A DNA stretch of 27,678 nt from a virus (IMGVR_UViG_3300044825_000459:1-27678); one strand, 5' to 3'. Positions 10 to 27,677 are shown, counted from the first letter of the stretch. Notes: generated by a model from the sequence alone, not told the origin. A program made the numbers and translations.

Positions 10-2847
10 TTATTTGAACTTATCCCATGCTCCGACAGTAGTGAGGCTTTGAGGCGTTCCGAAGCGTAGCGTATTGTCTACAACTCTTGCTGCCGCGTTA
101 GGGTCACTCATGTTTACTCCGGTCACAGTCGTATAGTAGTTTGTCATTGACGCTTCTTCGCCTCTACGGAAATCGGCGATGCTACCGGTGTTGATTGGCT
201 TTGTTGGATTGAGGGTTGGTGCTGTGTATGTGGTTGCCGGTGATTTTGCCAATGCCGCTGCCGCTGCTCTTTCCTCTCCAAGCTTCTTTAGTGCTGCCGC
301 TGTTGCTACTAGGTCTGCTTGCAACTCCGCTAGTTTTTCCTTTGTGGAAGCTGCGATAGCCGCAATCGCGTCTTCGTAATCTGTTTGGATTTCCTTTAAC
401 GCCTCTGCTAGTGCCTCTGCGTTTTCCTTCATGGCCTTGTTGAACTCGTCCATGGTGTTTTTATTGGCTTCGGCTAATGCTTCATCGGCCGCCGCTAGTG
501 CTTCGGTGAGAATGGCCTTTGACTCTGCCATCTTCTCTGAGTAATCCGCGTTTGCCTTTGCTAAGTTTTCTTTCAGGTCAGCGTTGATTTCGAGAATTGA
601 CTCATTGACATCAATCGCTACTTGCTTGAACGCGGTCATTAGTTGCGTCGTCGCTAACTTGCCGCCGGCGTTCATGGTTGCTGCTAGTTGGTCTAATCCT
701 GTTTCGGAAAGTCTATTTACCTGACCGTACAGGTCTTTGAGTTCGCTTTGTGTTTCGGTTGAAGCGCTGAGTAGCGCCTTTGCCATTTCGTTTCCAACTT
801 GCGGACCCGCTGCCACAACTTCTTCAATAAAGACCTGAGAGTAACCGGCTGCTTGTAGTGCCGCTGCGTTTTTCTGTAATTCCTTTGACGCTTCTAACTT
901 GTCTTTAAGTTGCGTAATTACATCGTCAGCGGTCTTTGCTCCGTCTTTGAAGATTTGGCTAATGTTTGCTGCCGTTCCGCTGGCAAATGCGTTGCGTAGG
1001 CGGTCGATAGATTGCTGCACGATAGAAGCTTGTTTTTCCGCTCCGGCTTTGCGTACATTGGCAATCTTGTCTTCCGCTGCTTTGTTGATTTCAAGAATCT
1101 TTTCAGCGTAATCCTTCTCGATTTCCGCATCGCGTTTCCTGCGGTCTTCGCGTGCCTTTGCGTATGCCTTGTTCCAAGCATCTTCGTTTTTCTGGAGTTC
1201 CTCGTTTTTCTTGTCAATGATTTTCTTTTCGAGGTCGGCATACTTCTTCGTTGTATCCGCGATTGCCTTGTCTCGTTTTTCGGCAGCCTTGACTCGCGCC
1301 TTGCCGTCAGCCTCGATTACATCGTTCATCTTCTCATGGAGTTTTACGACTTCCTTATTGGCCTTTTCAATGTCTTTAACGCGTTGCTTCGCTGCCTTTG
1401 CTGCCTCTGCCGCTGAGGTTCCTCCGCCTGTAACGCCGCCTGTATCTCCGCCAGTCTTCTTACCTGAGCCGTAAGTGAACGCGCCTTCGCCGTATCCTGC
1501 GTTTGTTTTCTTTAAGTCTGCCAAATTCTTTGCTGTTGTTTTGATTGACTCTGACGCTTTGTTTGCTCCGTCGGCAATTCCTTTTGCCCAGCCCATGCCC
1601 GGTATCTTGGCCAGCATACCGATGAACTTTCCAATGCCTCCGACAAGCAAGGCAAACCCGTTTAGGATTACTTGAACTCCAGCGATTACTATGCCTCTGA
1701 ATGTTTCGGATTTTTTCCACGCCCAAATAAATGCTGCTCCGAGAACCATAAGCCCTGTGACAATTAGGCCAATCGGGTTTGCTCGCATTGCGGCATTGAG
1801 TACTAGCATTGAAGCTGCTAAGCCGTTTGTTGAAGCGATAGACGCTAGCGTTGCGCCTCTCATTAGCGTTGTAACTACGACATAAAGTTGTTGCGCAACT
1901 CTTGTTGCGACTAGGGCTGCCCTGTAAGCGTAGAACGCAGTAGCAGCGGTTCCTAAAATTATCGCAAGCATTTTGAGTGCGTCTGCGTTTTCCTTGAAGA
2001 ACTTTGTTAGGCCGGTGATAATCGGTACAACCGCTTTTAACACCGCGAGTATTGCTGTGAATGCTGGCATGAGCATGTCACCGACTGCGACTTTTGCGTT
2101 TTGGAACTCTGCTTGCAAAGACTTCATCTTGTTTGCTGTTCCGCCGGCTGTACGCGCGTAATCGCCTTGCGCTAGTTTTGTCTGCTCCAGTACCAGCGCG
2201 TAAGTAACTTGCGCCTTAATCGCTGGATCCATTGCGCCCTTGATTTCACCGAAACCCATCGCCATTGCTTTTGCTTTTAGGGTTGTTTCGTTGAGTGCTA
2301 CGCCGTATCGCTTTAGCGGCTCTGTCTCGCCTGATAATCCTGAACGCAACGCGTTGATTGCTTCTTCGGTTGAAGTGTTATTGAATGAGCCTAAGTCTGC
2401 CGCTAGTTGTACCAGCGTCGTAGACATTTCGTTTGCCTTGCCTTGCCCGATACCGAACGCTTGGAACAAGTTGCCGTAGGTTCCTGCCGCTTCAATCGCA
2501 GCCTGATTAGACATACCCATGCTCTTTGCTGCGGTGTCGCCGAACTTGAATACTGAGTCTGCGGTGTCTCCGAATACGACCTTGACCTTTGATACGGACT
2601 CGGCCATGCTGGAAGCCGCCATGATTGTGTCTTTGCCGAATTGGACAATCTGCGTTCCCGCGAAGGCGACACCCATTGTTGTTCCGACTTGCTTAATCTT
2701 GCTCATGAAGTTTGTCATGCCGCTTGAAGCTGTGGCAACGCTGGTATCTATGCCCTTGATTGCGTTTTGCGCTTGCTGTAATCCTGCTTTGAGGCCGGCT
2801 ACATCTGCTTGTAATTCGATTAGTACTGGAGGGATTGCACTTGCCAT
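10..2847 (-). CDS. Tail tape measure protein
   Basis: 945 aa, Ala/Gly-rich and helical. It has a TMP-type core (DLGSFNN...ALRSGLSGETEPLKRYGV), hydrophobic repeats (ANPIGLIVTGL) and a long coiled coil. It lies downstream of the tail tube and chaperone. Its stop overlaps the next ATG (TAATG at 8-12). Confidence 0.93.
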   Translation of the reverse strand: MASAIPPVLIELQADVAGLKAGLQQAQNAIKGIDTSVATASSGMTNFMSKIKQVGTTMGVAFAGTQIVQFGKDTIMAASSMAESVSKVKVVFGDTADSVFKFGDTAAKSMGMSNQAAIEAAGTYGNLFQAFGIGQGKANEMSTTLVQLAADLGSFNNTSTEEAINALRSGLSGETEPLKRYGVALNETTLKAKAMAMGFGEIKGAMDPAIKAQVTYALVLEQTKLAQGDYARTAGGTANKMKSLQAEFQNAKVAVGDMLMPAFTAILAVLKAVVPIITGLTKFFKENADALKMLAIILGTAATAFYAYRAALVATRVAQQLYVVVTTLMRGATLASIASTNGLAASMLVLNAAMRANPIGLIVTGLMVLGAAFIWAWKKSETFRGIVIAGVQVILNGFALLVGGIGKFIGMLAKIPGMGWAKGIADGANKASESIKTTAKNLADLKKTNAGYGEGAFTYGSGKKTGGDTGGVTGGGTSAAEAAKAAKQRVKDIEKANKEVVKLHEKMNDVIEADGKARVKAAEKRDKAIADTTKKYADLEKKIIDKKNEELQKNEDAWNKAYAKAREDRRKRDAEIEKDYAEKILEINKAAEDKIANVRKAGAEKQASIVQQSIDRLRNAFASGTAANISQIFKDGAKTADDVITQLKDKLEASKELQKNAAALQAAGYSQVFIEEVVAAGPQVGNEMAKALLSASTETQSELKDLYGQVNRLSETGLDQLAATMNAGGKLATTQLMTAFKQVAIDVNESILEINADLKENLAKANADYSEKMAESKAILTEALAAADEALAEANKNTMDEFNKAMKENAEALAEALKEIQTDYEDAIAAIAASTKEKLAELQADLVATAAALKKLGEERAAAAALAKSPATTYTAPTLNPTKPINTGSIADFRRGEEASMTNYYTTVTGVNMSDPNAAARVVDNTLRFGTPQSLTTVGAWDKFK

Positions 2848-2850
2848 GTG

Positions 2851-3285
2851 TTATCCCTTCATTTTGCGGCGAACCGCGTTTGTAAATACCCGGTTTATTG
2901 TTCCGTTATTTATCAATGTTTTGCCGGCCGGCATAAGGAAAGGATACCGCACGCCTGACTTCCAACGCTTGCTTCCTAGTTCAACCGCGCGCGCGTACTC
3001 GACCGTTGGACCAACTGTCGCTATGTAACTGCCGAAGCCGTACCGAACTGTTGTTGTAATGCTGCGTCGTAATGTTCCTGTTACTACGTTTGGACCCGGA
3101 CCCGTTCCCGGTATGTGGCCTTGCCCGCGCGGGTGCGTTCCGGTGTTTGCGTTTTTCTTTGCTTCTCGTTCTACCGCTAAACCGGCTTGCGCAACTCCGT
3201 ACTCCGCTGCGTATTCCATTTGCTTTTCAAATGCGTCTAGAGCGCCGAATACTTCGGTTAAGTTGCGTATGATGATTGCGCCCAT
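2851..3285 (-). CDS. HK97 gp10-like tail completion/neck protein
   Basis: 144 aa with family-like motifs VVTGTLRRSI, VGPTVEYARAVELG and YPFLMPA. Confidence 0.8.
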   Translation of the reverse strand: MGAIIIRNLTEVFGALDAFEKQMEYAAEYGVAQAGLAVEREAKKNANTGTHPRGQGHIPGTGPGPNVVTGTLRRSITTTVRYGFGSYIATVGPTVEYARAVELGSKRWKSGVRYPFLMPAGKTLINNGTINRVFTNAVRRKMKG

Positions 3286-3516
3286 TTACCCGCTCGCTCG
3301 CTCTGCCTTCTCCGCTTTGACTTCTTCTACTGCTCCGGCAATCGCTATTAACCAATCCGCTGTACCGGCTGGCAATTCGTCTACTTGCTGCGGTGTCCAA
3401 CCGAATCGGTCAGCCATCGTGTAGTAGTACCAATGCTCATCGGGGTAGTCAAAGTTTTCGCTCCGACTGCCTCCGTTGAGAACCCATTTTAGCCGTTCGA
3501 GTTGCCGGTATCCGCT
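3286..3516 (-). CDS. Tail assembly chaperone, -1 frameshift extension (gpT-like part of a G-T fusion, about 186 aa total)
   Basis: The -1 frame is open from the slippery site to TAA at 3286-3288. It reads SGYRQLERLKWVLNGG...MADRFGWTPQQVDELPAGTADWLIAIA..., with a gpT-like FGWTPxxVxxLP motif. Not in the ORF track. Confidence 0.8.
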   Translation of the reverse strand, partial: SGYRQLERLKWVLNGGSRSENFDYPDEHWYYYTMADRFGWTPQQVDELPAGTADWLIAIAGAVEEVKAEKAERASG

Positions 3517-3845: not shown

Positions 3846-3865
3846 GTACTTGCCTCCTGTTGTTT

Positions 3866-3945: not shown

Positions 3946-3955
3946 TTGGAGATTG

Positions 3956-4942
3956 TTATGCGTATGTTCCGCTTGGCTTTGCGTTTTGGATTGTCCACTT
4001 GATTGGTGAGAATCCTAATGTCGCTCCTGCGTCGGTTGTATTTCCTTGACCGTTGATGTCTACTGAAATCTGTACGAAGTCAGAACCACGGTCAATCGCT
4101 GCCGCTACATACGCGCCCTTTGTTAGTACTGCGCGAATTTGTAGTGCTGTTGCTCCTGCACCTGATGCCCAGTTCAAAGAAATAGCCGGCTGTGTGTTTG
4201 TGATGTAGCGGGTTAATTCTGTGTCTGCTTCCATCACGAAAGTAAGCTTTCCAGTTACTTCTAGTGGACCGAGGAAGACGTTGAATGGGTTTTGGGTGTT
4301 GTTGATTCCGTAGACCGGTGTTACTGGTCGCTTCATGCTGATTTCGCCGGAGATTGAGTTGGTGATTGTTGTTCCGCCGATTGTTACAGTACCTTGCCAA
4401 ACCGGAGTTGGCAGGATTGTTGAGAATGTTGGTGTTGGTGTCGTTGCTGTTGCAGAAGCCCAGCCCGTTACCTTTGCGTCGTACTCCAACATTCCGTCTG
4501 CGTTGAACTTCAATGTGAAGTCTGAGAATTGGCAGCCCGGATACGCGCGTACTGCCGCTGCGTAGAAGTCTGTCAATGTGTATGAAAGAGGCTGAGCGTC
4601 TGCCGCTGCAACTGCGCTGTTCTCTAGTGACATTGTGTGTGTGAATGGCGCGCTTGCTCCTGTTGTTGCTACATCGCCTAGTAGACCGGCAATTGCGTAA
4701 CCGATTGTGTCCGCAAATGCTGCTCCGCTGAAATCGTATGTTGAGCGAGTACGACCCGGAATGTAGTTGTAATTCTTTAGGTTTGAACCACGGATACCTT
4801 CGTCGTAGAGTGGGTCAATGATGTCGACCGGCTTTAGGCTGCTCGCCATTACTGGTAGGTAGTCTGTTGGTGCTACTGCGGTTCCCTTTGTAACTTCTTT
4901 GGCAATACCTAAGTAGGACCGGACGGATTGTTGTACTGGCAT
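3956..4942 (-). CDS. Major tail tube protein
   Basis: 328 aa, Thr/Gly-rich beta protein with a tube-type N-terminus (YLGIAKEVTKGTAVAPT). Located between the terminator and the chaperone. Confidence 0.88.
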   Translation of the reverse strand: MPVQQSVRSYLGIAKEVTKGTAVAPTDYLPVMASSLKPVDIIDPLYDEGIRGSNLKNYNYIPGRTRSTYDFSGAAFADTIGYAIAGLLGDVATTGASAPFTHTMSLENSAVAAADAQPLSYTLTDFYAAAVRAYPGCQFSDFTLKFNADGMLEYDAKVTGWASATATTPTPTFSTILPTPVWQGTVTIGGTTITNSISGEISMKRPVTPVYGINNTQNPFNVFLGPLEVTGKLTFVMEADTELTRYITNTQPAISLNWASGAGATALQIRAVLTKGAYVAAAIDRGSDFVQISVDINGQGNTTDAGATLGFSPIKWTIQNAKPSGTYA

Positions 4943-5106: not shown

Positions 5107-5113
5107 GCTGCTC

Positions 5114-11005: not shown

Positions 11006-11127
11006 TAGGACTCCTCTGATTGTTCAGTAATTGTACCCTGTGTATCTAGTCTTTCGTCTGCCTGTTCCGGTATGCGGGTTATCCACACAATGCCTTCGCC
11101 GTCGTCTACGAATCTGCTCTTGCTCAT
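11005..11127 (-). CDS. 40-aa peptide, candidate immunity/inhibitor of the MuF-ART
   Basis: MSKSRFVDDGEGIVWITRIPEQADERLDTQGTITEQSEES. ATGA overlap with the ART stop and TAATG overlap with the next gene. Not in the ORF track. The function is inferred. Confidence 0.7.
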   Translation of the reverse strand: MSKSRFVDDGEGIVWITRIPEQADERLDTQGTITEQSEES

Positions 11128-12578
11128 TGAACCACCTTTACCGTAATTACCCTGACGAGTCTTCCTCCGAGCTCTTCTTCGCGTTTAGATACTATCTCAA
11201 ACTTTGTGCCAGCGGGTAGAAGCCACTCGCTCTCTTTTAAAGTCCTACCCGAGTCTATTACCTTTTCAATCGCTAATCCTTTTGTGCCGGCTGGATTGAT
11301 AATCTGTAATTGGGTAGTGCGTCCAAATTGTAATGCTTTTGACATGCTAGCCGTTGTAGACACAAATCCATTGTCTTGGAATACGCTGCCCGGTGCTGAT
11401 TCCCACACTTCGTCTGCGAACTTTCCTATTACGCCTCGGAGCGTTATGAAGCTCTTTTCTATTGGGTCTGTCGATAGGATTGTGTTTTGTATTCTTGCAA
11501 TTCTTTCGTCGAAGATTTGCTTGACGCGTGATTGTTCTACTGCGTCTCCGAGAGGTTTCCAATACTCATCGCCGGTTCGCAAATAGTCGTTTATGCGCTT
11601 GTACCCGCTGCCCTTGTAGAAGTTTAGAGCGTCGTATTCTTCTCGCGTTAATACTCCTAGTTTCGCGTCTTGGGCTTGTCCAATCATTCCTAGTCTTCTG
11701 CTTGTAAGTAATTCGATAACTTCCGGTTTTGTCGGTTTTAATGTTGGTGTGATGATAGTCATTCCGTCGGTTGGTTCCGCGTAGAAGCTTTCGTCCAGTA
11801 CTGGTAGTAATGCGCAGCGGCAGTTCGGGTGCGCCGGCGGTTGCGTATGTCCGCTCTTGAACGGTTGCCCTACCTGTACAACTTGCCCCTCGTTAGGCGC
11901 GCAGATGTCACAAGGCATTGCGCCGCTCCACTCCATCTTTTCGACTTCGTACTTTTGGTAATTCTGTATTGTCGCCATGCTCATTGCGCGGTTTTGCTCC
12001 GTGATTGCGATGGTTAGCGCTCGCGCCGGGTCGCCTATCTTTGCCGCTATGACCTTTGCTGCTCTGCCCGGTGAGAATCCGGCCGCTATTGAGTCGGATA
12101 GTGCTGTTCCGATTCTGTCGTAGCCGACCTTCGCTATGGCCTTGCTTACTATGCCCGCGTTATCGAGTATTTCCTTAAATGCTCCTGTTGGTCTGAACAA
12201 CAATGCCGCTGCCCTGTTGCCCGGCTTCCAGTTCGCCCAGTCTATGTACTCATCTGCCTTTGTGAGCGCTGCTTTGTCCGAGGTCTTTTCCGCTCTGTTG
12301 ATTGCCTCTGCGCTTGCGTCTAATCCAAGGAGGAATCCATCTGTGTAAATCTTGGTGAGCGCTGCTATTACCGGCTCCGGGTTAATCTTGACATTCATCA
12401 TCGCCCATGCTCGCGCGCGTGCGCGGTCTTGCGCGTTGTTATCTGTTACGAACGGTTGAGTATCTTGGTACGCCTCGTAGATTGCTTGCGCGTTGATACT
12501 CGCTCGTAATGCTGCGCGCATTGTGACCGAATTCTTTGCCGCTATGCGCACATCTGCTTTGTGTGCGCCCCAATTCAT
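11124..12578 (-). CDS. MuF (SPP1 gp7-like) minor head protein fused to a C-terminal VIP2/C3-like mono-ADP-ribosyltransferase
   Basis: MuF motifs: RALTIAITE, W...CDIC, PPAHPNCRC. ART motifs: ALNFYKGSGYKRINDYLR, LRG, GFVSTT, ESEWLLP (R-S-ExE). Confidence 0.9.
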   Translation of the reverse strand: MNWGAHKADVRIAAKNSVTMRAALRASINAQAIYEAYQDTQPFVTDNNAQDRARARAWAMMNVKINPEPVIAALTKIYTDGFLLGLDASAEAINRAEKTSDKAALTKADEYIDWANWKPGNRAAALLFRPTGAFKEILDNAGIVSKAIAKVGYDRIGTALSDSIAAGFSPGRAAKVIAAKIGDPARALTIAITEQNRAMSMATIQNYQKYEVEKMEWSGAMPCDICAPNEGQVVQVGQPFKSGHTQPPAHPNCRCALLPVLDESFYAEPTDGMTIITPTLKPTKPEVIELLTSRRLGMIGQAQDAKLGVLTREEYDALNFYKGSGYKRINDYLRTGDEYWKPLGDAVEQSRVKQIFDERIARIQNTILSTDPIEKSFITLRGVIGKFADEVWESAPGSVFQDNGFVSTTASMSKALQFGRTTQLQIINPAGTKGLAIEKVIDSGRTLKESEWLLPAGTKFEIVSKREEELGGRLVRVITVKVVQ

Positions 12579-14443: not shown

Positions 14444-15805
14444 TCAGGCTTGCGTAATGATAGCAGTACCACACTTGAAACAGCGACTTGCGCTTTTCGG
14501 CATTGGTAATCCGCACTTCGTACAGAAGTTTGCTAACGCCGCGAAGTATGTTGCTGCGCTGCTCGTTCCAATCAAGCTGCTAAACCCTTGCACCATCGCG
14601 TCTAACCTGTCCGGGCTGTCTGCGCTGTCCGGTGTCCATGTCGTCATCTGCTCTTCTAGTTTGTCAAAGTTACCTACATGCTTTATTCGGCCTTGCTCGT
14701 ACATCGCTGCTACCGGTTCCGCGCGAAGCTTCTTTCCAATGTGTACTCGAACTTCCTGAATCGGCAAACTCATGTCTACTTGACGGAGAACCGCTGTAAC
14801 CATGTCGCCTCCCTGATTTACTTCCACAAGGATTGAGTCTGCTTTGTGGTCACGGAAGACTTGTACCGCCTTTTGCGCCCATTCGTTAGGGCTGCCCTTG
14901 AATGAGTAATCTGCCAACACATAACCGTTGCCCGCTGCGTCGCTTCCGACTACGAGTATTCCGGTTTCGTCGCTGTCCTTTGTGTTTGTTACTGCCGGGT
15001 CAATGCTTACCGCTATCCGGGCTAGTGGAGGTGCTATCTCTACCCTGTTGCGGTCGATTACTCCTTTTGTCCAGAGTGCGCCTTCTACATCGTCAAGGAT
15101 TTCGCCGTACAACTCCTGTCGGCCTAGTCTTGTTCCGTTGTATCGTGCCTGTAATTCTACGAGTGCGCTCGGTGCTAGGTTCGCTGCGTTATCGAAGGTT
15201 GAACCTCTTACTACCTTGACGCTGCCGTCTTCTCTCGCTACTAACTGTCTGATAAGCGAGGTTGGTCTTGGTGTCGTCGTAATGATTGTCTGCGGGTGGT
15301 CGCCGAGGCGTAATCCGAATTGAAGCTGGTCAAATGTATCCGGGTAATCCCATGCTGCTAACTCGTCACACCATGCTCCGTGATGTTGCGGACCGCGTAG
15401 ACGGTCAGGCTCCGCCGCTGAGAAGAGTTTAATCCTGCTCCCGTTGGTGAGTTTGATGTCGCCGGTTGAGCGGTTGTAGTAATCCAATGCGCCGTATTGG
15501 TGGAGGATAGGGATAATGCCCGACTCTCCCTCTGCGCAGGTGTCTCGGACGTCGCCGAATGTCGGTGCGATTACTGCCCAGCGTGTCCAGTTATGCGTGA
15601 GCGCTTGCCACACAATCCACTCCGCTGCGGTGCGTGTCTTTCCTGCTCCGCGTCCGGCTAGGTACAACCAAATTGACCAATCTTCGTCAGTCGGTAATTG
15701 CTCTTCTCTCGCTAACACCGCTGCCCAAGTTGCCCGGCGCGCCGCGAGATTGTCTAATGAGGTCAATAATTCGGGCTGTGTGTTCAATGAGTTGCTGACC
15801 CTCAT
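14444..15805 (-). CDS. terL: Terminase large subunit
   Basis: Walker A AGRGAGKT, Walker B AWCDE, motif III ITTTP, nuclease SIDPA...DETG...DRLDA. Extra C-terminal CxxC-x10-CxxC. Confidence 0.96.
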   Translation of the reverse strand: MRVSNSLNTQPELLTSLDNLAARRATWAAVLAREEQLPTDEDWSIWLYLAGRGAGKTRTAAEWIVWQALTHNWTRWAVIAPTFGDVRDTCAEGESGIIPILHQYGALDYYNRSTGDIKLTNGSRIKLFSAAEPDRLRGPQHHGAWCDELAAWDYPDTFDQLQFGLRLGDHPQTIITTTPRPTSLIRQLVAREDGSVKVVRGSTFDNAANLAPSALVELQARYNGTRLGRQELYGEILDDVEGALWTKGVIDRNRVEIAPPLARIAVSIDPAVTNTKDSDETGILVVGSDAAGNGYVLADYSFKGSPNEWAQKAVQVFRDHKADSILVEVNQGGDMVTAVLRQVDMSLPIQEVRVHIGKKLRAEPVAAMYEQGRIKHVGNFDKLEEQMTTWTPDSADSPDRLDAMVQGFSSLIGTSSAATYFAALANFCTKCGLPMPKSASRCFKCGTAIITQA

Positions 15806-16157
15806 AGACTGTTACCTCCGCTGTAATCTTGGTTGGAGCGTCTAGCCCCAGTAGTTTGATTTCCTTCTCCGCTATCCGTAGCGCTGTGTCAATCGCCCGT
15901 AGGTCGCCTTCCTTTGCTCGCGGCCACACCGCCATGTGCATACGCTCAAATCTGTCTAGAACCGTATCCCGGTACTCCTCTAGGCTTGGTCGTATCATGC
16001 GCTCCGCTGCGCGCTGGTACATCTTGTATGCCCCGCTTGCATTCTTGAACCCGACTTCGCGTGCAATCTTCTCCCAAGTTACTCCTGCTCTGCGTAACTC
16101 GATAATCTGTAATTCTTTGTCGAGTACCGCTGGAGGGGGCGTTTTTTTCCTGCTCAT
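15687..16157 (-). CDS. terS: Terminase small subunit (N-terminal HTH)
   Basis: Motifs ELRRAGVTWEKIAREVGF, GDLRAID and KLLGLDAPTK. Immediately upstream of and overlapping terL. Confidence 0.78.
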   Translation of the reverse strand: MSRKKTPPPAVLDKELQIIELRRAGVTWEKIAREVGFKNASGAYKMYQRAAERMIRPSLEEYRDTVLDRFERMHMAVWPRAKEGDLRAIDTALRIAEKEIKLLGLDAPTKITAEVTVYEGQQLIEHTARIIDLIRQSRGAPGNLGSGVSERRAITD

Positions 16158-16705
16158 GCGTTTCCTTTTCCGTAGGATAAATAGTCTCCCATAATTTGAG
16201 TAATCTCGCTAGGTGGCAATTCTCCCGGTAACTCTATTGCTTCGTACAGCGCTGCTAGGTTCCTGTGCTTCGTTGCTCTGCCTCTTGCCCATGATGGGTT
16301 TTGCGTCTTCCCTGTTTCGGCGCTTCTTGCTTCTCTTCTTGAAGCTGCTACATCTACATCTATGTCTAGGTAGAACAGGTGCAGTTTGCCATGGCTCTTT
16401 GCTAGGTCGAAGAATGTCCGGCTCGCTAGTCTGTCGCCTTCTCCGTAAATGGTTGCGCCCTCTTGCTCTGCGTACTTGTAGAACTCCGGCATTTGTGTAA
16501 TTACGGTGTTGCCGAGGGTATCTGTTCCGCTGAAATGCAATCTGTCCCAGCCGAGAGAGAGAACCTTCCCTAGATTGGGTGACTCGTACTCTTGGTACTT
16601 GAACGGTTTGTCATACATGTTTACCTTCGCCCAGTCCTTTTGAAGCTCTTTTGTCAGAGTTGTTTTGCCGCTTCCCGGCTCTCCAATAAGGTAAATCGTG
16701 TCCAA
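16154..16705 (-). CDS. P-loop nucleotide-kinase-fold protein, candidate modified-base (5hmU) DNA kinase
   Basis: N-terminal YLIGEPGSGKTT, FSGTDTL, YGEGDRL and a lid-like RREAR. Adjacent to the TET/JBP gene. Confidence 0.75.
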   Translation of the reverse strand: MDTIYLIGEPGSGKTTLTKELQKDWAKVNMYDKPFKYQEYESPNLGKVLSLGWDRLHFSGTDTLGNTVITQMPEFYKYAEQEGATIYGEGDRLASRTFFDLAKSHGKLHLFYLDIDVDVAASRREARSAETGKTQNPSWARGRATKHRNLAALYEAIELPGELPPSEITQIMGDYLSYGKGNA

Positions 16706-16720
16706 TGCCCTCCCCCTATC

Positions 16721-17572
16721 TTATTCCGGGTTTTTCAGGTCGTTTGCCATCTTCTCTTCTCGCTGCGTGCGCTTTTCTGCGCCCTTTGCTGTCTCTACTG
16801 CGTAAGTAAAGCAATCTTTCATGCCCTTTAGCGCGTAGTACACGATTGAGTAGCGGTATGCGTCCTTCGCTGTTGCGTGCATTGGTGTTACTCCGTGAAG
16901 GTACTTGTATCCCGGGAAGAACAGCACCCAGCCGTCGCGGCAAGCGCAGGTTAGGTCGTACTCCGGGAAGTTTAGGTATCCGCCTCTCATGTCGCGTCGT
17001 ACTACCGGCATTGCGCTCCATGTTGCGTAATTGAATCCGTCGCGGTGGTATGGCAGGGTTGAGGCTTTGTTTACTACGCCGCTTGTCCATAATGCGTCGT
17101 CTGTCATCTTCCACTCGTTGTCAATGCCGCTGGTCGCTAGAGTCTCTGCGTCTTGCGCGAACAGGTGCGGTGCAAACTCTTTGAACATGTCGCCGAACTT
17201 TGTGGCGAACGCTACAAGGACTGCATGCTCTTCCGGTTGCTCGTTTGCCAATGTTGTTGGTCGGCAACTCTCTCTGCGCTGGAAGACCTTGCGTGGAGCC
17301 ATGCCGAATGTCCGGGATTGGTTTTCCATTCCGGTTCCTGCGCGCTTGGTAGTGCCGTAACGGATTGCCTTTACAGACGCTCGCAACAGATTGACTTCGT
17401 CTTCCATCGGCATGTAAGCGAGGATTGGTTCCTCTGTCTCTGCGTCAATGAAGATAGCCGCTTCTCGGCAATTCGCTTCTAAGTCAGGCACCGTCGTTCC
17501 CACAAGCTCTGTCGCTTGTTCTACGCTCATTACACGGGATACTCGGATTACTGGTAACTCAGATAGTTTCAT
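16721..17572 (-). CDS. TET/JBP-family 2OG-Fe(II) dioxygenase (DNA pyrimidine hydroxylase)
   Basis: HxD in PYHRDGFN, GGYLNFPEY, distal His in LHGVTP and the 2OG-binding Arg in RYSIVYY. Confidence 0.85.
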   Translation of the reverse strand: MKLSELPVIRVSRVMSVEQATELVGTTVPDLEANCREAAIFIDAETEEPILAYMPMEDEVNLLRASVKAIRYGTTKRAGTGMENQSRTFGMAPRKVFQRRESCRPTTLANEQPEEHAVLVAFATKFGDMFKEFAPHLFAQDAETLATSGIDNEWKMTDDALWTSGVVNKASTLPYHRDGFNYATWSAMPVVRRDMRGGYLNFPEYDLTCACRDGWVLFFPGYKYLHGVTPMHATAKDAYRYSIVYYALKGMKDCFTYAVETAKGAEKRTQREEKMANDLKNPE

Positions 17573-17717
17573 TCTGTTCCTTTTCCGCTCTATGTCGTTC
17601 CTTGTAGGCTTCGTATGCGATTTTCAGTAATTCTTCGTCGTACATTTGTTCAGGTCTGATTGATGCCCAGAACTTCTTTTCTCTGTATTCGTCCATGTCA
17701 ATCACATTGTCGTTCAT
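17559..17717 (-). CDS. Small hypothetical protein (52 aa)
   Basis: MNDNVIDMDEYREKKFWASIRPEQ... ATGA overlap upstream, and it overlaps the TET start downstream. Not in the ORF track. Confidence 0.65.
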   Translation of the reverse strand: MNDNVIDMDEYREKKFWASIRPEQMYDEELLKIAYEAYKERHRAEKEQNETI

Positions 17718-18349
17718 TGTGGAGCCTTTTCGCCGTAGTTTTCCTCCAGCAATTTTACCAGCGCGTCCGAGTTGCTCATGGCTCCGGTCTTCGCTCGGTA
17801 TCTGCCTAGTTGCTCAATCGTCCAGATGTACAGCGTGTTTTCCAATTCCACCATGAAGACCTTCGTGTCTACCGCCTTGTATCTGTCTGCTAGGCCTTCA
17901 ATCTGCGAGGCTATCTCTGCTTGTCCGGTCTTTGCTAGGCCGTCAATTACTGTCGGTGTTTTCTCTTCCTCTATGCGCGCCAGTACATCGTCGAACTCGT
18001 CATCGCCGTATCCCGTATGTTCTAGGTCGTTGAGTCGCTCTAGTAATTCTAGTAACGCGTTATTGTCGTACTCGCTGAGGTCGGTTGCTCTGTTGTCAAT
18101 AAGAACAATCTTTGCTGCGGTCTCTGCGTCTACTTCAATGAATGTCGCTTCAATCTCTGTCCAACCTAATTCTTTTGCCGCTGCGTAAGTGTGATTGCCT
18201 ACAAGGATTTCGTTAGTCGCCTTGTTAACCGTAATCGGCTTGTACTGTCCGTACTCGCTTAATGACTCCGCGATTAGTTTGATGTTTCCCCTGCGCGGGT
18301 TATTTGGATACTGATGTAACTGGTCTAATGGAACCTTCTCTGCGTTCAT
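17714..18349 (-). CDS. ParB/Srx N-terminal domain protein, paralog 2
   Basis: YPNNPRRG, YGQYKPITVN, ILVGNHT, KIVLIDN. Confidence 0.88.
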   Translation of the reverse strand: MNAEKVPLDQLHQYPNNPRRGNIKLIAESLSEYGQYKPITVNKATNEILVGNHTYAAAKELGWTEIEATFIEVDAETAAKIVLIDNRATDLSEYDNNALLELLERLNDLEHTGYGDDEFDDVLARIEEEKTPTVIDGLAKTGQAEIASQIEGLADRYKAVDTKVFMVELENTLYIWTIEQLGRYRAKTGAMSNSDALVKLLEENYGEKAPQ

Positions 18350-18957
18350 TCCGGTGCGCCTTCCCCTGAAATCTTTTCTATTAAGCGTATAAGTGCATTT
18401 GTGCTGCTTGGTAAGTCGTTTTCATTTCGGAATTGTTCTAGTTTTTCTGAAACCCACATGTAAGTTGGTTTGTTCATGTCGAACATGATAATTCTTGATG
18501 TGCGCTGATTGAGTGTCTCTTGCCAATCCTTTAGTGACTTGCCCATTACCGTATTGCGTAGTGCCGGTTCCGGTGTGTCGTACAGGCTTTGAAGCTCTTT
18601 CAGGTCTTTGTCTGTGTAACCGGTTGCGCTGAGGTCGCCGATTGAATCTAGTAAGCCGAGTAGCGTTGCGTCGTCGTATCCTCCTGCGTCGCTGGTCTTA
18701 TTGTCCATTAACACAATCTTTGCTGCGGTGTTTTCGTCTGCGTCAATGTATACAGCCTTGATTGTTGCCCAACCTAGTTTGCGTGCTGCTTGCGCTGTGT
18801 GATTACCTGCGAGGATTTCGTTTGTTCGCTTGTTGATTGTTATTGGTTTGTACTGGCCGTATGTCTCTAGGCTCTTTGCAATTAAATTGATGTCGCCTTT
18901 GCGCGGGTTATTCGGGTATGGCTTTAATGTTATTAGCGCTACTTCCTTGATTTCCAT
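18346..18957 (-). CDS. ParB/Srx N-terminal domain protein, paralog 1
   Basis: YPNNPRKG, YGQYKPITIN, ILAGNHT, KIVLMDN. Confidence 0.88.
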   Translation of the reverse strand: MEIKEVALITLKPYPNNPRKGDINLIAKSLETYGQYKPITINKRTNEILAGNHTAQAARKLGWATIKAVYIDADENTAAKIVLMDNKTSDAGGYDDATLLGLLDSIGDLSATGYTDKDLKELQSLYDTPEPALRNTVMGKSLKDWQETLNQRTSRIIMFDMNKPTYMWVSEKLEQFRNENDLPSSTNALIRLIEKISGEGAPE

Positions 18958-19348: not shown

Positions 19349-19719
19349 GCCGGCGCTTCTACCTTCTCTTCAATGTACTTTGTCTTTGCTGTTTGCCCTT
19401 TTGCTATCTTGGCAATCTCTGTTCCCACGATTTCCAGTCCGGTTACGGTCTTTCCGTCTTTGTTGGTGTATGTGCTTTGTGACAGCATACCTACAAGAAT
19501 TACTGAGTCGCCCTTTGCGTAGTTGTCTACAATGCCCTCTGCCTTTGAGCCGAAGAATGTAACTCGATACCACATGGTCTCGCCGTCTTCCCATGCTTGC
19601 GTGGTCTTGCTCTTGCGGCGCGGTGTATGCGCTACTGAGAAGCTTGCTATGGCGAGGTCGCCTACAAACTTGATTTCCGGCTCGCTGCCGATGTTGCCTT
19701 TTGTCGTGATGTTATTCAT
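19342..19719 (-). CDS. ssb: Single-stranded DNA-binding protein
   Basis: OB-fold motifs ITTKGNIGSEPE, WEDGETMWYRVTFFG and KGDSVILVG. C-terminus EAPAW. Confidence 0.92.
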   Translation of the reverse strand: MNNITTKGNIGSEPEIKFVGDLAIASFSVAHTPRRKSKTTQAWEDGETMWYRVTFFGSKAEGIVDNYAKGDSVILVGMLSQSTYTNKDGKTVTGLEIVGTEIAKIAKGQTAKTKYIEEKVEAPAW

Positions 19720-20050
19720 GTGCCTTCTCCTCTAGTATTTTTCTTGTTCCGTCGTCCAATAGTAATGCGAATCGGCCGTCAGGCAAAGTTATCGGCCACT
19801 CATGCGGTTCGCGCCAACTCGGCACCATGTATCCGCGCTCCTCTGCCCATTCCGGGTTGAGGTGGATACTGTCTGTTCCTAGATTGTGGCACTTGTGATG
19901 TACCGAAATTAGGTTTGCCGGCGTGTCCTTGCCTCCGCGTGACTTTAGTTTTCTGTGATGTAGTGCCATGCTCTCTTGTGAGGTTTGTCCGCAAACCTCA
20001 CAGTAATCTCCTGCGCGAAACCTCACAATCTCTACAACCTTCTTGTCCAT
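19712..20050 (-). CDS. HNH endonuclease
   Basis: Start re-called to MDKKVV (AAAGGA RBS). CEVCG...HHRKLKSRGGKD...NL...HHKCHN. Confidence 0.85.
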   Translation of the reverse strand: MDKKVVEIVRFRAGDYCEVCGQTSQESMALHHRKLKSRGGKDTPANLISVHHKCHNLGTDSIHLNPEWAEERGYMVPSWREPHEWPITLPDGRFALLLDDGTRKILEEKAHE

Positions 20051-23771: not shown

Positions 23772-23868
23772 TTGCCTGTCCTAACGCTTGGGAGACGCTG
23801 TCGGTCTCTGTTGCATTAATTGTGCCCCCGAATGGCACTTTTGTCTCCCGATTTCCGAAAGTTTTTTA
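23772..23868 (-). promoter_or_regulatory. Early promoter/leader repeat, copy B
   Basis: Minus strand: TAAAAAACTTTC...CACAATTAAT.CAACAGAGAC-CGACAGC-GTCTCCCAA...GTTAGGA...GCAAATG. Confidence 0.68.
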
Positions 23869-23876
23869 AAGTTTTT

Positions 23877-24248: not shown

Positions 24249-24439
24249 ATTGAAATTGTAACCCGGCCATTTACGATTGCTGTTCCCGGCTGGTTATCTT
24301 CGTCTAGTAAAAACAAATCGTAGGTGCCTATGTTGTCCGGACCTTCAATTCCTTTTACCGTCCATGTTTTTGAGTTGATAATTACGCGGTCGCCAAATTG
24401 TAGGTGCGACGCGTCTGTTGTTACGAGCGTGCTTGTCAT
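24245..24439 (-). CDS. Small SH3/KOW-like beta-barrel hypothetical protein (64 aa)
   Basis: Start re-called to MTSTL (GGAGGAGG RBS). ASHLQFGDRVII...WTV. Confidence 0.68.
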   Translation of the reverse strand: MTSTLVTTDASHLQFGDRVIINSKTWTVKGIEGPDNIGTYDLFLLDEDNQPGTAIVNGRVTISM

Positions 24440-24473
24440 TTCACCTCCTCCGCTGTGAGGTAGATTACGTATA

Positions 24474-24502
24474 AGTGTAACCCTTACGGATAATCTGAGC
24501 AA
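24474..24502 (-). promoter_or_regulatory. Sigma70/SigA-like promoter overlapped by an inverted repeat
   Basis: TTGCTC (24502-24497), 17 nt, TACACT (24479-24474). Imperfect dyad at 24462-24496. Confidence 0.6.
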
Positions 24503-24505
24503 ACC

Positions 24506-24580
24506 CTACTTCCGGTGCGCTCCGTGATTGAATACAAGCACGAGCGTTAGCCCGATTAGGTAAATCGCTATCCACTCCAT
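24506..24580 (-). CDS. 24-aa single-helix membrane peptide
   Basis: MEWIAIYLIGLTLVLVFNHGAHRK with a GAGGAGG RBS. Not in the ORF track. Confidence 0.55.
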   Translation of the reverse strand: MEWIAIYLIGLTLVLVFNHGAHRK

Positions 24581-24599
24581 GGCCTCCTCCTCTCTGCGC

Positions 24600-25400
24600 T
24601 TAGACGCGCTTCAGTAAATCTTTCAGGTAATCCGGCATTGGAACCGCCTTTGCCCTTGCCTCTTCTTGAAGCTGCGCCAGCCTCTCAGACGCTTCGCGGT
24701 CGAGTCGTGCCTTTTCCCTAGCCCTTGCTGTCTCCTCCGCTCTAATGGCCTCCTGTGACTTCTTAGCGGGTGGTAGGGGTTCGTCCTCCCATTGCTCTGC
24801 GTTGAGCCATGTCGCCGGGTATGGCGTGTATGTGTCTTCCCGGTTAGGGTCTGCCGCGAATCTCTTTGCGCCGGCTAATGCCGCCTTGCGGTTCTCCGCT
24901 GACAGTTTGTCCCACGCTTTTCTTGCTGCTCCCTTTGCCGTTTTTCTTGGATACGCTTTCCAAAATAAATCGAACTCTCCGGGTGTTTCAATGGGTGGTT
25001 CATTAGGGTGTTTCATGAGACGTGAATGTCGCCCCGTAGCCGTCGTCAATGTCGGGTCGTTAGTGTCGTCAATGTCGGGTCGTACTTCTTTACGCGGCGG
25101 CGTTTTGTCGCCCCGTAACTTCTTTAACACGATTGTGTACCGGTGCGGTCTCCTGTCGTCTCGGCAGGTTGCCGACCCGCCTCCTCGCTTCTCGACCCAC
25201 AGCCAGCCGTCTTCCACAAGCTTGTTAATGCTGCGCTGAACTGTCCGGACATTGCAACTCGCCCGAGTCGCTATCGTCATCTGACTCGGCCATGCGTTAT
25301 CGCCTTCGTCTGTTGCGTGGTCAGCAATTACGAGCAGTATCATCTTTTCTGTCGTTGGTAAGTTGGTTCGCCAGACTTCGCTCATAATTCTGATACTCAT
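24600..25400 (-). CDS. Phage replication initiator (N-terminal winged HTH plus DnaD/O-like C-terminal domain)
   Basis: EKMILLVIADHA..EG..AWPSQMTIA...RTVQRSINKLVEDG and FDLFWKAYPRK...PYPATWLN...WED. Confidence 0.85.
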   Translation of the reverse strand: MSIRIMSEVWRTNLPTTEKMILLVIADHATDEGDNAWPSQMTIATRASCNVRTVQRSINKLVEDGWLWVEKRGGGSATCRDDRRPHRYTIVLKKLRGDKTPPRKEVRPDIDDTNDPTLTTATGRHSRLMKHPNEPPIETPGEFDLFWKAYPRKTAKGAARKAWDKLSAENRKAALAGAKRFAADPNREDTYTPYPATWLNAEQWEDEPLPPAKKSQEAIRAEETARAREKARLDREASERLAQLQEEARAKAVPMPDYLKDLLKRV

Positions 25401-25722
25401 GCGTGATTGCCTCTATCTCTTTTCGTTGTATTCCGTATTTGGTCAATTCGAGTGTCGCTATTTCCTGCGCGTACGACCCGTCGTTTTTCTTTAGCGCTGC
25501 TCGCTCTTTGGAAGACAGCCCGCCCCACATGCCGTAAATCTCGTGACGCATTCCGTAGGCGAGACACTTATCCCAAATCGGGCAGGAACCGCAAATCCTT
25601 CTTACCGGTTCCAGCCCAATGAGGTTGATGACTCGTTTGTCTTCTTCAATAATGTAGAAGAGGTTTGTTGGTGCGCCTTCACAAGCTGCGTCAGCCCAAT
25701 TTATTTGGTCGTACCCGGACAC
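25321..25722 (-). CDS. whiB: WhiB-family Fe-S transcription factor
   Basis: WADAAC...ICGSCPIWDKC...YGMWGGLS..ER (4 Cys plus the G-x-WGG turn). Start re-called to GTG at 25722. Confidence 0.93.
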   Translation of the reverse strand: MSGYDQINWADAACEGAPTNLFYIIEEDKRVINLIGLEPVRRICGSCPIWDKCLAYGMRHEIYGMWGGLSSKERAALKKNDGSYAQEIATLELTKYGIQRKEIEAITHEYQNYERSLANQLTNDRKDDTARNC

Positions 25723-26369
25723 CCGTTTACTCCGCTCGCGTCGTAGTAAGAGCAGTAAGAAGCGCAGAACCCTGCCCACTTTTCTGCCGGCGGCTGCGTG
25801 TTTGCTGCCGCCATTTGCTTAACTTCTTCCAGCCACTTGATTGCCGCTAGTGCCATGTCTTCGTCGTATGGCTCCCGGTGCGCTCGTATCTCGCTCATGA
25901 GGCCATCGCGCGGTACCGCTACTAGAGACACTTCGTTTACTGTGTATCCGTTTTTTGTTAGAAGGTAGCCGTACAGTTGAACTTGCCAACGCTGTTGTTC
26001 GTCCGGGAAGTATCTCAGGCTCTTCTTCTTTGTGGTCTTCCAATCCACGACGAGGCCGATGTCTTTGATAAATAAATCACAATGGCCTTTTAGTCCTTCG
26101 TACTCAAATGATTGTTCGATTAGAAAGTTGTCACCGAATGGGTCTTCTCTCTTAATCGCTTCGGCTATGCCGCTATGGATAAATGTTCCGAGAATTGACG
26201 CTAGTGACTCGGTGTCCGGGTTTGTCTTCGGTGCGTTTTGAAGCTGGTAGTAAACCTTGCGGCGGCAGCCTCCGATACTGCTAGGACCGATTTCTACTTG
26301 CTTGCTGCGGTCTCTGTTTTTATCGTAGGCGCTTAGGCTCTTGCTTAGTAAGTCGTTTAGGTCAATCAT
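25701..26369 (-). CDS. Cas4-like PD-(D/E)xK exonuclease
   Basis: IGPSSIGGC.R, GTFIH, GHCD...VVDWKT, QVQLY and C-terminal CxxxC...C (Fe-S ligands). Confidence 0.88.
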   Translation of the reverse strand: MIDLNDLLSKSLSAYDKNRDRSKQVEIGPSSIGGCRRKVYYQLQNAPKTNPDTESLASILGTFIHSGIAEAIKREDPFGDNFLIEQSFEYEGLKGHCDLFIKDIGLVVDWKTTKKKSLRYFPDEQQRWQVQLYGYLLTKNGYTVNEVSLVAVPRDGLMSEIRAHREPYDEDMALAAIKWLEEVKQMAAANTQPPAEKWAGFCASYCSYYDASGVNGCPGTTK

Positions 26370-26643
26370 TTTTCTCCGTCTTCCGAATTGTGTCAAGCAA
26401 GTATTGTGAGTCGAGCAGGATTGCCGGCGTCAAATCCTCCACATTGAGTTTTAATGCCTTCGTAACTTCTTCTCCGATTACATGTCGCCAGTAGTACTCG
26501 AACTCATGCGCTAGGACTTCCCAAGCGTTTACCGCTGTTCCGCCGTTCATGTTTTTTATACCTGAGTCGTTTACAACCGTTTTGTGCGCGTCTTCTCTAA
26601 TGAAGGCGAGCGCTTGGTCGTACAGGTGAATCTTCTCAATCAT
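26362..26643 (-). CDS. Hypothetical protein (93 aa)
   Basis: Overlaps both neighbours in operon fashion. Confidence 0.65.
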   Translation of the reverse strand: MIEKIHLYDQALAFIREDAHKTVVNDSGIKNMNGGTAVNAWEVLAHEFEYYWRHVIGEEVTKALKLNVEDLTPAILLDSQYLLDTIRKTEKND

Positions 26644-26773
26644 GGTGCATCGCTAATTCGGCAACTTCTTTTGCTGCCTCTTCGCGGCTTACACCCGGGT
26701 GCGTTTTGATGTACGCGTCTATGAAGCTCTCCAATAGGGATTGGTTTAGTCCTTCTTTGTTTTCTTTGCTCAT
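26636..26773 (-). CDS. Small hypothetical protein (45 aa)
   Basis: MSKENKEGLNQSLLESFIDAYIKTHPGVSREEAAKEVAELAMHHD, GGAAGGA RBS. Not in the ORF track. Confidence 0.62.
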   Translation of the reverse strand: MSKENKEGLNQSLLESFIDAYIKTHPGVSREEAAKEVAELAMHHD

Positions 26774-26785
26774 CTTTAATCCTTC

Positions 26786-26944
26786 CTAATGCTCGCAGGG
26801 TTCGTTGTAATCAAATTGGCAGAAATAGCAACCCATCTGTTCTCCATGCGCTTTACACACATACCGGAATTGACTTTGGTCGCAGCACATAAATGTCGGT
26901 TCATGGATTGTGTAGAACTTGTTTTGGTCAATCGCCGTCGTCAT
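26786..26944 (-). CDS. Small Cys-rich protein (52 aa)
   Basis: MTTAIDQNKF...MCCD...VCKAH...GCYFC...PCEH. ATGA overlap and GGAGG RBS. Not in the ORF track. Confidence 0.65.
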   Translation of the reverse strand: MTTAIDQNKFYTIHEPTFMCCDQSQFRYVCKAHGEQMGCYFCQFDYNEPCEH

Positions 26945-27309
26945 AGCGCCTCCATAGATGACCGAACAGATGTTCCAATGCTGCGCGCAATCTCTACTTG
27001 CGTTTTAATGCGCGCTGCGTTTGCTCTTGCTGCCTTCACTTGCGCCTCCGCCATTGCTACTTGTAAATGTAACTCTGCGTTTTCTAGTAGTGCCATGTCT
27101 TCTCTTTCGCTGACGGTGTAATTCTTTCCTGTCGGTGAAGACTTGGTGCTGTAAATCATTCTGCTACGCGCTATCGCAATTTCGTATTGCGCTTTGTAAC
27201 TGTTGTAATGGCTTTCGACTTCTACTAACTCGCTGTGTGAGTCGTCAATCTCTTTACTGAGGTCGTATAGTCGCTTCTCAATCTGCGCCGGTGTAACTAC
27301 ATTAGTCAT
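26941..27309 (-). CDS. Coiled-coil protein, possibly a UvsY-like recombination mediator (122 aa)
   Basis: Helical heptads with a TVSERE motif, near the Cas4-like exonuclease. The function is a weak inference. Confidence 0.55.
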   Translation of the reverse strand: MTNVVTPAQIEKRLYDLSKEIDDSHSELVEVESHYNSYKAQYEIAIARSRMIYSTKSSPTGKNYTVSEREDMALLENAELHLQVAMAEAQVKAARANAARIKTQVEIARSIGTSVRSSMEAL

Positions 27310-27433
27310 TTGTTCTAATCTCCCAACGCTCCGGTACAAACTTCCAACAGCGTAAGCAGCAAAGTTCGAACCAATCGTGTCCTATGATTGAGCAAACCAG
27401 TTTTTCTTTTACGAGGTGCCAAAACTTACTCAC
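27302..27433 (-). CDS. Small DUF1660-like Cys/His protein (43 aa)
   Basis: MSKFWHLVKEKLVCSIIGHDWFELCCLRCW..., pattern CxxxGHxW...CxRC. Overlaps both neighbours. Confidence 0.6.
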   Translation of the reverse strand: MSKFWHLVKEKLVCSIIGHDWFELCCLRCWKFVPERWEIRTND

Positions 27434-27677
27434 CGGCAAGCTCCTCTTCATCTAACTCGCTAACGCTGTCCGCGATGTCTGTCTTGTCTTGTACAACTGA
27501 TAGATGTTCCTTCGCCTTGCGCTTTTCAATCTCCATGACCTTCCATGAATCTGACGCGTAACCAAATGGGTCAGGTGTTAGTTGGTATCCGGCTGTGTCC
27601 AATGCTTTGCCAACCGTAACTCCGTCGAGGTTTAATGCCTCTGCGAGTCGGTGGATACTGACTTGCTGATGGTTGAT
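27426..27677 (-). CDS. Partial hypothetical protein (5' end outside the window)
   Basis: Open frame ...INHQQVSIHRLAEALNLDGVTVGKALDTAGYQLTPDPFG...EEELAGE*. Confidence 0.6.
   Translation of the reverse strand: MNHQQVSIHRLAEALNLDGVTVGKALDTAGYQLTPDPFGYASDSWKVMEIEKRKAKEHLSVVQDKTDIADSVSELDEEELAGE

Follow-up and report, generated by a model that had tools for sequence, protein, structure and literature searches.

The DNA analysed here is a viral record of 27,678 nt (IMGVR_UViG_3300044825_000459:1-27678; hereafter the window, meaning this whole stretch), a fragment of a tailed-phage genome with its genes on the - strand. It carries 43 co-oriented sites built around an AGCT core, which are a real, selected and unusual feature and form a signal along one strand of the genome. 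The mechanism is likely tied to a cassette of the same phage that pairs ParB-like proteins with a predicted thymine dioxygenase.

Co-oriented AGCT sites along one genome strand

The window contains 44 AGCT tetranucleotides, preceded on the + strand by A in 43 cases and by G in one. The 43 comprise 27 GAAGCT, 15 CAAGCT and a single TAAGCT (site 4245), the base following AGCT on the + strand is G in 18, T in 14, C in 12 and A in none, and the mirror contexts CAGCTT and GAGCTT both have a count of 0 on that strand. These numbers agree exactly with a preliminary description of the window, which had reported 42 (G/C)AAGCT contexts among 43 A-preceded sites, GAGCTC at 11169-11174 as the single non-A case, and no mirror forms. 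The sites are as follows:

279..27445, - strand: array of 43 co-oriented sites (from sequence counts, spacing statistics and a synonymous null)
AGCT starts on the + strand, sites 1-11: 281, 349, 1027, 1813, 2728, 3672, 4245, 5515, 5764, 6331, 6630
AGCT starts on the + strand, sites 12-22: 7421, 8181, 8891, 9798, 10874, 11450, 11786, 12822, 13391, 14575, 14727
AGCT starts on the + strand, sites 23-33: 15324, 16343, 16644, 17505, 18593, 19036, 19641, 20299, 20827, 21544, 21993
AGCT starts on the + strand, sites 34-43: 22305, 23083, 23587, 24004, 24670, 25219, 25684, 26242, 26725, 27439
11169..11174: the sole non-conforming site, GAGCTC, in the variable 3' end of a gene for a MuF protein fused to an ADP-ribosyltransferase (ART) domain

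Read on the - (coding) strand the sites have the form 5'-VVV-AGCT-T-S-W-3', which on the + strand reads S-A-AGCT-B-B-B. T is absent from positions -1 to -3 in 43 of 43 sites and is present at -6 in 23 of 43, as against 50 of the 291 unused positions able to encode AGCTT. Fourteen of the 43 are the palindrome AAGCTT, and site 4245 has A in place of S at +5. The non-conforming GAGCTC is missing in relatives L002, L003, L081 and L083, which have a conforming site at 12207, and other strains carry indels at 11162-11169. The same rule holds in the closest group of relatives (class A, below) from other IMG/VR samples, so it is not an assembly artefact.

The context bias is not reproduced by 300 genome-wide synonymous codon shuffles, a check of the kind that the preliminary description had proposed. 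Against this null AGCT as such is about halved (44 versus 95.0±8.3 expected), whereas AAGCT on the + strand is about doubled (43 versus 21.3±4.2, shuffle maximum 33); on the same strand CAGCT occurs 0 times versus 21.0 expected, GAGCT once versus 20.4 and TAGCT 0 times versus 32.4. The hexamers GAAGCT (27 versus 7.2, maximum 14) and CAAGCT (15 versus 4.8, maximum 11) both lie beyond the range of the shuffles. That the sites are spread over all three reading frames (8/20/15), together with the failure of the shuffles to produce them, rules out a codon or protein artefact. A second null, synonymous Markov chain Monte Carlo sampling in which AGCTV and TAGCT were forbidden (99 samples), gives 10.6±2.6 (maximum 21) of the full motif VVV-AGCT-T-S where 42 are observed, an approximately 4-fold enrichment, and 25.2±4.6 AGCTT where 43 are observed; 42 of the 148 positions able to encode the full motif are used.

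The array is also unusually even. Gaps between sites average 647 bp with a maximum of 1270, their coefficient of variation (CV) is 0.42 against about 0.97 expected, and this evenness exceeds that of all 20,000 random draws, whether from uniform or encodable positions; short gaps number 2 versus 9.3 expected and long gaps 0 versus 5.7. In relatives at 83-96% nucleotide identity, four lost sites are accompanied by nearby gains (15324 by 15353, 16343 by 16384, 6331 by 6195 and 2728 by 2593, at distances of 29, 41, 136 and 135 bp), and the loss of site 4245 pairs with a gain at 4655 or 4837 (410 or 592 bp); sites 3672, 14575 and 22305 were lost with no near replacement. All gained sites in class-A relatives match the motif. 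Because the sites are enriched, evenly spaced and replaced when lost, we conclude that they are selected for and not merely tolerated. The over-representation under the second null, the evenness and the longer motif all go beyond the preliminary description.

Whether the rule belongs to the genome strand or to the coding strand, a distinction left open in the preliminary description, can be read from the relatives, which have one antisense gene (Ntn/proteasome-like). Of its seven non-palindromic AGCT sites, six agree with the genome strand alone (two of these being one site common to the near-identical G007 and G036), one agrees with either strand, and no site agrees with the mRNA strand alone. 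Since the antisense-gene sites fit the genome strand, this shows that the rule follows the genome strand and not the mRNA. These sites and the silent composition described below also rule out an RNA-level cause such as an mRNA-cleaving toxin. The gene itself (5911-6501 of L193 in G001) runs opposite to the other genes in classes A and B and in some of class C, but in G242, G243 and G035 its call is on the main strand; it was considered as a diagnostic of the phages that keep AGCT and rejected, being present in zero-AGCT G243 and G035 as well.

Other short words are also unusual in the window. GATC is nearly lost (1 versus 76), ATAT is lost (0 versus 39), GGATG/CATCC and CCWGG are almost entirely gone, and ACGT is reduced, with A or C as the next base on the coding strand in 16 of 16 cases; the sets of purged palindromes differ among close relatives. 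No restriction enzyme for ATAT is known to us. The pattern of Type II avoidance, in which a palindrome is depleted regardless of orientation, is seen for GATC and ATAT in the window and for AGCT in relatives that have almost none of it, but not for the kept AGCT context.

A predicted thymine-modification cassette and site symmetry across the phage family

Upstream of the terminase genes the window encodes two ParB-like proteins, a TET/JBP dioxygenase and a P-loop kinase, in this order:

18346..18957, - strand: ParB-like paralog 2, 203 aa (Pfam ParB_N; its own paralog clade in the tree)
17714..18349, - strand: ParB-like paralog 1, 211 aa (Pfam ParB_N; second paralog clade)
16721..17572, - strand: TET/JBP-family dioxygenase, predicted thymine hydroxylase, 283 aa (Pfam Tet_JBP, E 4.3e-8)
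16154..16705, - strand: P-loop nucleotide kinase 3, candidate 5-hydroxymethyluracil DNA kinase, start codon uncertain (Pfam Ploopntkinase3, E 7.3e-22)
15687..16157, - strand: likely terminase small subunit, from its position before the large subunit (a PHROG 645 match is labelled otherwise)
14444..15805, - strand: terminase large subunit (Pfam Terminase_6N and 6C)

The dioxygenase scores 33 bits against Tet_JBP, slightly under the curated cut-off of 34.9, and is 43-47% identical to actinophage proteins annotated as Tet-like J-binding protein or thymidine hydroxylase, among them gp2-type proteins of cluster B mycobacteriophages; its residues H176, D178 and H226 are invariant across 19 aligned homologues. 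The nucleotide-binding ParB_N fold of ParB-parS systems is recognised in the window by both Pfam and Foldseek, the AlphaFold model of paralog 2 matching Noc, ParB and KorB structures. The middle part of the ParB model is of low confidence and no helix-turn-helix (HTH) DNA-binding domain is evident in it. The ParB C-terminus was considered as a ribbon-helix-helix reader, for which neither the monomer model nor a fold search gave support. The TET/JBP gene thus stands beside a ParB-like gene and is linked to a candidate gene for thymine hypermodification, the kinase, with no adjacent C5 methyltransferase. No amino acid:DNA transferase (AADT) gene was found between kinase and dioxygenase in the window, whereas relatives at 84-88% identity possess one: in class B the transferase and a 347-aa gene, c72, sit between TET and kinase, and both are missing from the window cassette (16154-18957). 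If the kinase acts on 5-hydroxymethyluracil (5hmU), the end product in the window could be phosphorylated thymine.

We examined 39 relative records that are whole or nearly whole and some 240 loci; the search for TET-bearing viral contigs that supplied part of these loci covered 80 of 461 matches. AGCT is scarce in much of this material, with 98 of 168 overlapping loci of at least 9 kb containing fewer than 0.3 AGCT per kb, with or without TET. Phages that keep it do so in distinct forms: V-AGCT-T, polar (class A, including the window); V-AGCT-G with some A, polar (class B); AAGCTT as the only or the enriched form (class C); AGCT-G on either strand (G244/G247); AGCT-C on either strand (G245/G246); and mixed, symmetric contexts (G024/G251). 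AGCT is unpurged in G012-14, which possess C5 methyltransferases and a Mom-like gene. In G010 AGCT is likewise not purged, yet AAGCTT is enriched (60 versus 29.5) and even, which makes tiling separate from purging. The most evenly spaced word of four to six bases is AGCT or contains AGCT in 9 of 29 records and is GATC in 5 of 29. N4 or N6 methyltransferases were found in 0 of 38 phage records.

Within this family of WhiB-encoding actinophages the base at +4, directly after AGCT, tracks the genes downstream of TET. Where one transferase type, ADDT65, is combined with c72 the base is G, and this holds for two separate ParB lineages; T accompanies c131/c132 or the absence of any modifier; and the other transferase alongside an FAD (flavin adenine dinucleotide) oxidoreductase goes with C or a mixture. 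G003 (L194-L195), which looks intermediate between classes A and B, has two tiers of sites, 102 AGCTG plus 15 AGCTTC at intervals of about 2.5 kb, and its GATC contexts are polar (M-GATC-R); G250 (L374-L375; L353), a ParB-TET-kinase phage, is very dense in GATC (896) and AGCT (389) over 37.5 kb; and G012-G014 (L213-L216, L250-L251) have ParB beside a Mom-family gene, strongly depleted silent-site AA/TT and evenly spaced GATC.

Site polarity follows the number of ParB genes. In 13 records of the two-ParB type, among them the unrelated G030 (three of the 13 lack the ParB region and were assigned by kinship), the polarity index lies at 0.86-1.00, as compared with 0.11-0.42 in those single-ParB records that offer 20 or more informative sites; exceptions are single-ParB L117 (74% GC; 0.55) and L308, all 5 of whose minor sites are co-oriented. 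In a quick ParB tree classes A and B share one duplication with L305/L306 and L101/L102, and G030/L108/L110 have another that arose independently. The cleanest contrast is that between G244/G247 and class B, which share cassette genes and differ in ParB number. In the single-ParB phages GAGCTG and CAGCTC are about equal (25:27 and 28:36) and TG is depleted on both strands (0.63 on the top; 0.57 and 0.63 on the bottom), whereas in two-ParB class B AGCTG is kept on the top strand only and TG is depleted on the top only (0.39-0.64; bottom 0.98-1.21). G030 (L244-L245), which possesses two ParBs, TET and a C5 methyltransferase, tiles AGCTT with a CV of 0.52 and shows a strong GC skew (0.26) in place of T depletion, possibly a mark of one-strand cytosine modification.

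The strand that carries the polar sites is also poor in thymine. T at four-fold sites of the top strand is 0.11-0.21 in the two-ParB clade (8 records) versus 0.25-0.41 in 18 others, and on the antisense gene's own strand in this clade the bias is reversed (T 43-56 and A 6-15 of about 100 four-fold sites). GGACC, GCATC, AGAAC and GCCGT have been lost from one strand only, GGACC numbering 0 on the top strand versus 14 for GGTCC. Silent-site T in the window (0.14) is among the lowest, with 0.11 in its twin G001.

As to origin, the genomes of relatives measure 35-43 kb, and by their lengths about 11 kb is judged absent from the record. Metagenome runs containing the window are from freshwater or lakes; run X1 has contigs identical to it and is possibly its own source. 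A WhiB gene points to an actinobacterial host, whiB having been used for phage host assignment (PMC6802176). No close relative of the capsid protein was found among cultured phages in the phage collection. Relatives of this protein occur in one Actinomycetota metagenome-assembled genome (MAG) and one Polynucleobacter MAG, MAG binning being weak host evidence; the family of the Actinomycetota MAG is poor in methyltransferases, and the MAG itself is neutral for AGCT (observed/expected 0.92 in 100 kb). A lake Methylopumilus bin, BS12, is described with methylated AGCT-core motifs whose flank preference (e.g. GMAGCTKC) resembles that of the phage motifs (10.1101/380360). Other genes of the window mentioned in this text are:

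25321..25779, - strand: WhiB regulator, actinobacterial-host marker (Pfam Whib)
19712..20050, - strand: HNH endonuclease (Pfam HNH), a candidate reader or cutter solely under the nicking explanation below
11124-12578: MuF protein fused to the ART domain, in a region highly variable among strains; MuF-ART-type domains have previously been reported in freshwater phages (PMC6802176)

A proposed ParB-clamped thymine dioxygenase and its rivals

The reading we favour tentatively, which we think could well be right though we would not rely on it, is that a thymine dioxygenase of the phage, clamped by ParB, recognises the co-oriented sites or loads at them, that a ParB heterodimer confines its action to one strand, and that all this is superimposed on a purge of AGCT. 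What it takes from observation is the enrichment, spacing, turnover, polarity and T-poverty, together with two associations, that of symmetry with ParB number and that of the cassette with the +4 base. A ParB dimer with its dioxygenase would engage a pseudo-palindromic site of about 16 bp, with T at -6, the AGCT core and A at +9, and the complex would work over a few hundred bases, requiring a site at least every ~1.2 kb. With a single ParB gene the protein would form a homodimer, the motif would be symmetric or free of orientation, and both strands would be modified; with two, a heterodimer would form, the left half-site would be relaxed, the sites would be co-oriented, and only the top (main coding) strand would be modified, on which modifiable T would then become costly and depleted. 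A separate AGCT cutter, probably host restriction, would purge the other AGCT, and the kept sites may survive since their modified T would sit in a TS context. With S at +5 the motif contains the dinucleotide TS, in which thymine hypermodification has been reported: this occurs at TG and TC and blocks restriction enzymes (PMC6449724). Phage ParB is described as activating T-dioxygenases on double-stranded DNA, with the dioxygenase modelled in place of the DNA-binding domain of ParB and a KorB-like clamp suggested; one such enzyme prefers NTG and then NTA (PMC13229309), which resembles the AGCT-G and then AGCT-A of class B. Kinase and transferase steps follow 5hmU (PMC8989533). The more specific proposal that the array is a grid of short loading sites, set a few hundred bases apart within coding sequence, for a sliding ParB-dioxygenase clamp, which the ParB duplication made polar and thereby able to hypermodify one strand genome-wide, is possible but rather doubtful.

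A number of results weigh against this reading. Only two independent ParB duplications have polar tiling. Among two-ParB loci, L110 and L116 have unpurged AGCT and no polarity (0.30 and 0.28), polarity is only partial in L101/L102 (0.67 and 0.51), and L107 is all but devoid of AGCT; G030, though polar, is not T-poor. T use showed no trend with distance from the sites, and hence no footprint of a limited working range was detected. Class A and class B differ in preferred +4 base although their TETs are 84-88% identical. Some phages with hardly any AGCT have near-identical cassettes, eight near-complete TET phages have 0-1 AGCT, so that TET presence does not predict the rule, and G243 and G035, whose ParB and TET are close to those of G242 (28 AAGCTT), have 1 AGCT each. 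A scan for a substitute tiled word in eight zero-AGCT genomes found none bar one weak match in G027, the scan being low-powered and having missed the known tiling of G242, G245 and G024. No gene presence or absence, and no residue, convincingly separates kept from zero-AGCT genomes, and trees of all widely shared genes require at least 3 changes between the two states, fewer being needed only in two patchily present genes. In Nigel and Tonitrus, two cultured phages with ParB and TET, AGCT is not tiled (CV 0.96 and 1.07 in the first 50 kb). Finally, a host AGCT restriction system was not identified among 52 candidate host genomes, C5 methyltransferases being present in 12 and N4/N6 enzymes in 4.

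The repeated switching between kept and zero states, with no phage gene to explain it, is what host switches would give, and speaks for an explanation we consider unlikely though not negligible: that a host factor reads AGCT, and in some hosts GATC too, and the phage benefits from their recurrence about every 1 kb, for instance in marking its DNA as self or in signalling a strand for repair. The cassette would then set which contexts survive an AGCT cutter and the ParB heterodimer would make protection one-stranded, which retains the link between ParB and polarity. Such an explanation also accommodates GATC, which tiles too, with flank rules in G245/G246, L354 and G011, polar context in G003 and even spacing in the TET-less G012-14. 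Against it, AAGCTT alone is enriched in G010 and G011, which are unpurged (so not any AGCT suffices), the preferred flanks shift with the phage cassette, and the footprint extends to -6 and +9; one candidate host is the MAG neutral for AGCT noted above, and lake Actinobacteria bins are without methylated motifs in the excerpted part of 10.1101/380360. The genome-strand polarity and ceiling of ~1 kb would suit Okazaki- or nick-scale spacing, and the sites could be nicking or priming points of a directional process (rolling-circle lagging-strand synthesis, packaging or ejection), made by the HNH nuclease, the terminase or a primase with the modified T picking the strand. The cassette adjoins the terminase, T5 and phage tf reportedly have one-strand nicks, and HNH clusters with all 10 zero-AGCT genomes of one comparison and is absent from unpurged G012-14. 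We nevertheless regard this as improbable: fully symmetric AAGCTT arrays (G008, G009, L029 and L097) would be cut on both strands, the HNH tree requires 6 changes between kept and zero-AGCT states, and nothing in nicking would make symmetry follow ParB number.

The preliminary description had offered two explanations of its own. According to the first, AGCT is a restriction site that survives only where a strand-specific modified T overlaps it, the site itself bringing no benefit. It is supported in part: its link to a T-modification cassette and to one strand has held up, through the +4 base, the dependence of polarity on ParB number and the genome-strand rule. The scarcity of AGCT in 98 of 168 loci, the 14 GGTCC versus 0 GGACC on the top strand and the blocking of restriction enzymes by TS contexts (PMC6449724) also agree with it. 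Tolerance would however predict neutral counts (~11-15) and random spacing where we observe 42 sites, a CV of 0.42 and compensatory gains, and the proposed comparison by TET fails on the eight TET phages with 0-1 AGCT. As sole cause it is contradicted and we judge it very unlikely, but it probably survives as the purge layer beneath the ParB-clamped dioxygenase. The second explanation was that BAGCT/AGCTV are sites of orientation-dependent Type III-like enzymes, kept co-oriented as in T7. The words gone from one strand only and the EcoP15I precedent, with which the window shares the one-way orientation of all non-palindromic forms (PMC12707154), speak for it; a palindromic core, 4-fold enrichment, even spacing and compensatory turnover set the window apart. 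Type III co-orientation entails a neutral or reduced frequency and no inverted pairs, and the window has 14 palindromic AAGCTT among its 43 sites; relatives use AAGCTT only or both orientations equally, GAGCTG and CAGCTC being kept alike. No systematic strand-asymmetric avoidance of Type I/III sites is reported in the excerpted part of PMC6286503. T7-like avoidance is not supported as the cause, because avoidance cannot create enrichment, nor does it yield spacing or turnover; as sole cause it is contradicted, and we give it hardly any credence.

Relation to known systems and implications

The cassette type itself is already published. Closest are the ParB-dependent T-dioxygenase (5mYOX clade C1) cassettes (PMC13229309) and the 5-hydroxymethyluracil DNA kinase/AADT (5-HMUDK/AADT) pathways (PMC8989533). 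With these the window shares ParB beside TET/JBP and a P-loop kinase, no adjacent C5 methyltransferase, a terminase link, a context preference and, in its relatives, amino acid:DNA transferases. It differs in having two ParB paralogs, no transferase, a genome-wide tiled motif and one-strand polarity, and the excerpted sections of PMC13229309 make no mention of two ParBs or a heterodimer. In a literature search that covered few subscription papers, we found no description of an evenly spaced oriented motif, a duplicated ParB or one-strand T modification in phages.

With ParB-parS and the KorB-KorA clamp (the latter as cited in PMC13229309) the window shares the ParB-CTPase fold and, putatively, a dimeric reader with a pseudo-palindromic footprint of ~16 bp. 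Unlike the few strong, origin-proximal sites of ParB-parS, its 43 dispersed sites are of low information, co-oriented, even and within coding sequence, and it has no evident HTH and no ParA among 39 scanned proteins. Short genome-wide motifs also serve distance-limited or directional DNA processes in the form of Dam GATC (MutH repair), Chi, KOPS, the nick sites of T5 and tf, and mycobacteriophage stoperators. Of these, GATC has no orientation and is methylated by the host, Chi and KOPS are signals of the host chromosome, and nick sites and stoperators are longer and fewer. We know of none whose symmetry shifts with how many copies of a partner gene are present.

PMC13229309 leaves open by what means ParB activates the thymine dioxygenases of phages and whether it directs these enzymes to particular DNA, and the genomes described here offer a candidate site, a spacing and a natural contrast of one versus two ParB genes with the same downstream enzymes. 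If the ParB duplication did give a polar clamp that hypermodifies one strand, these phages would carry genome-wide hemi-modified DNA, reshaping site orientation, restriction-site orientation and silent composition strand by strand. A double-stranded DNA genome hypermodified throughout on one strand would represent a new way of countering restriction and would provide a tool for strand-selective DNA labelling. Whatever reads the sites, an oriented, evenly spaced and turnover-maintained motif within phage genes is a selective signal overlooked by word-count surveys.

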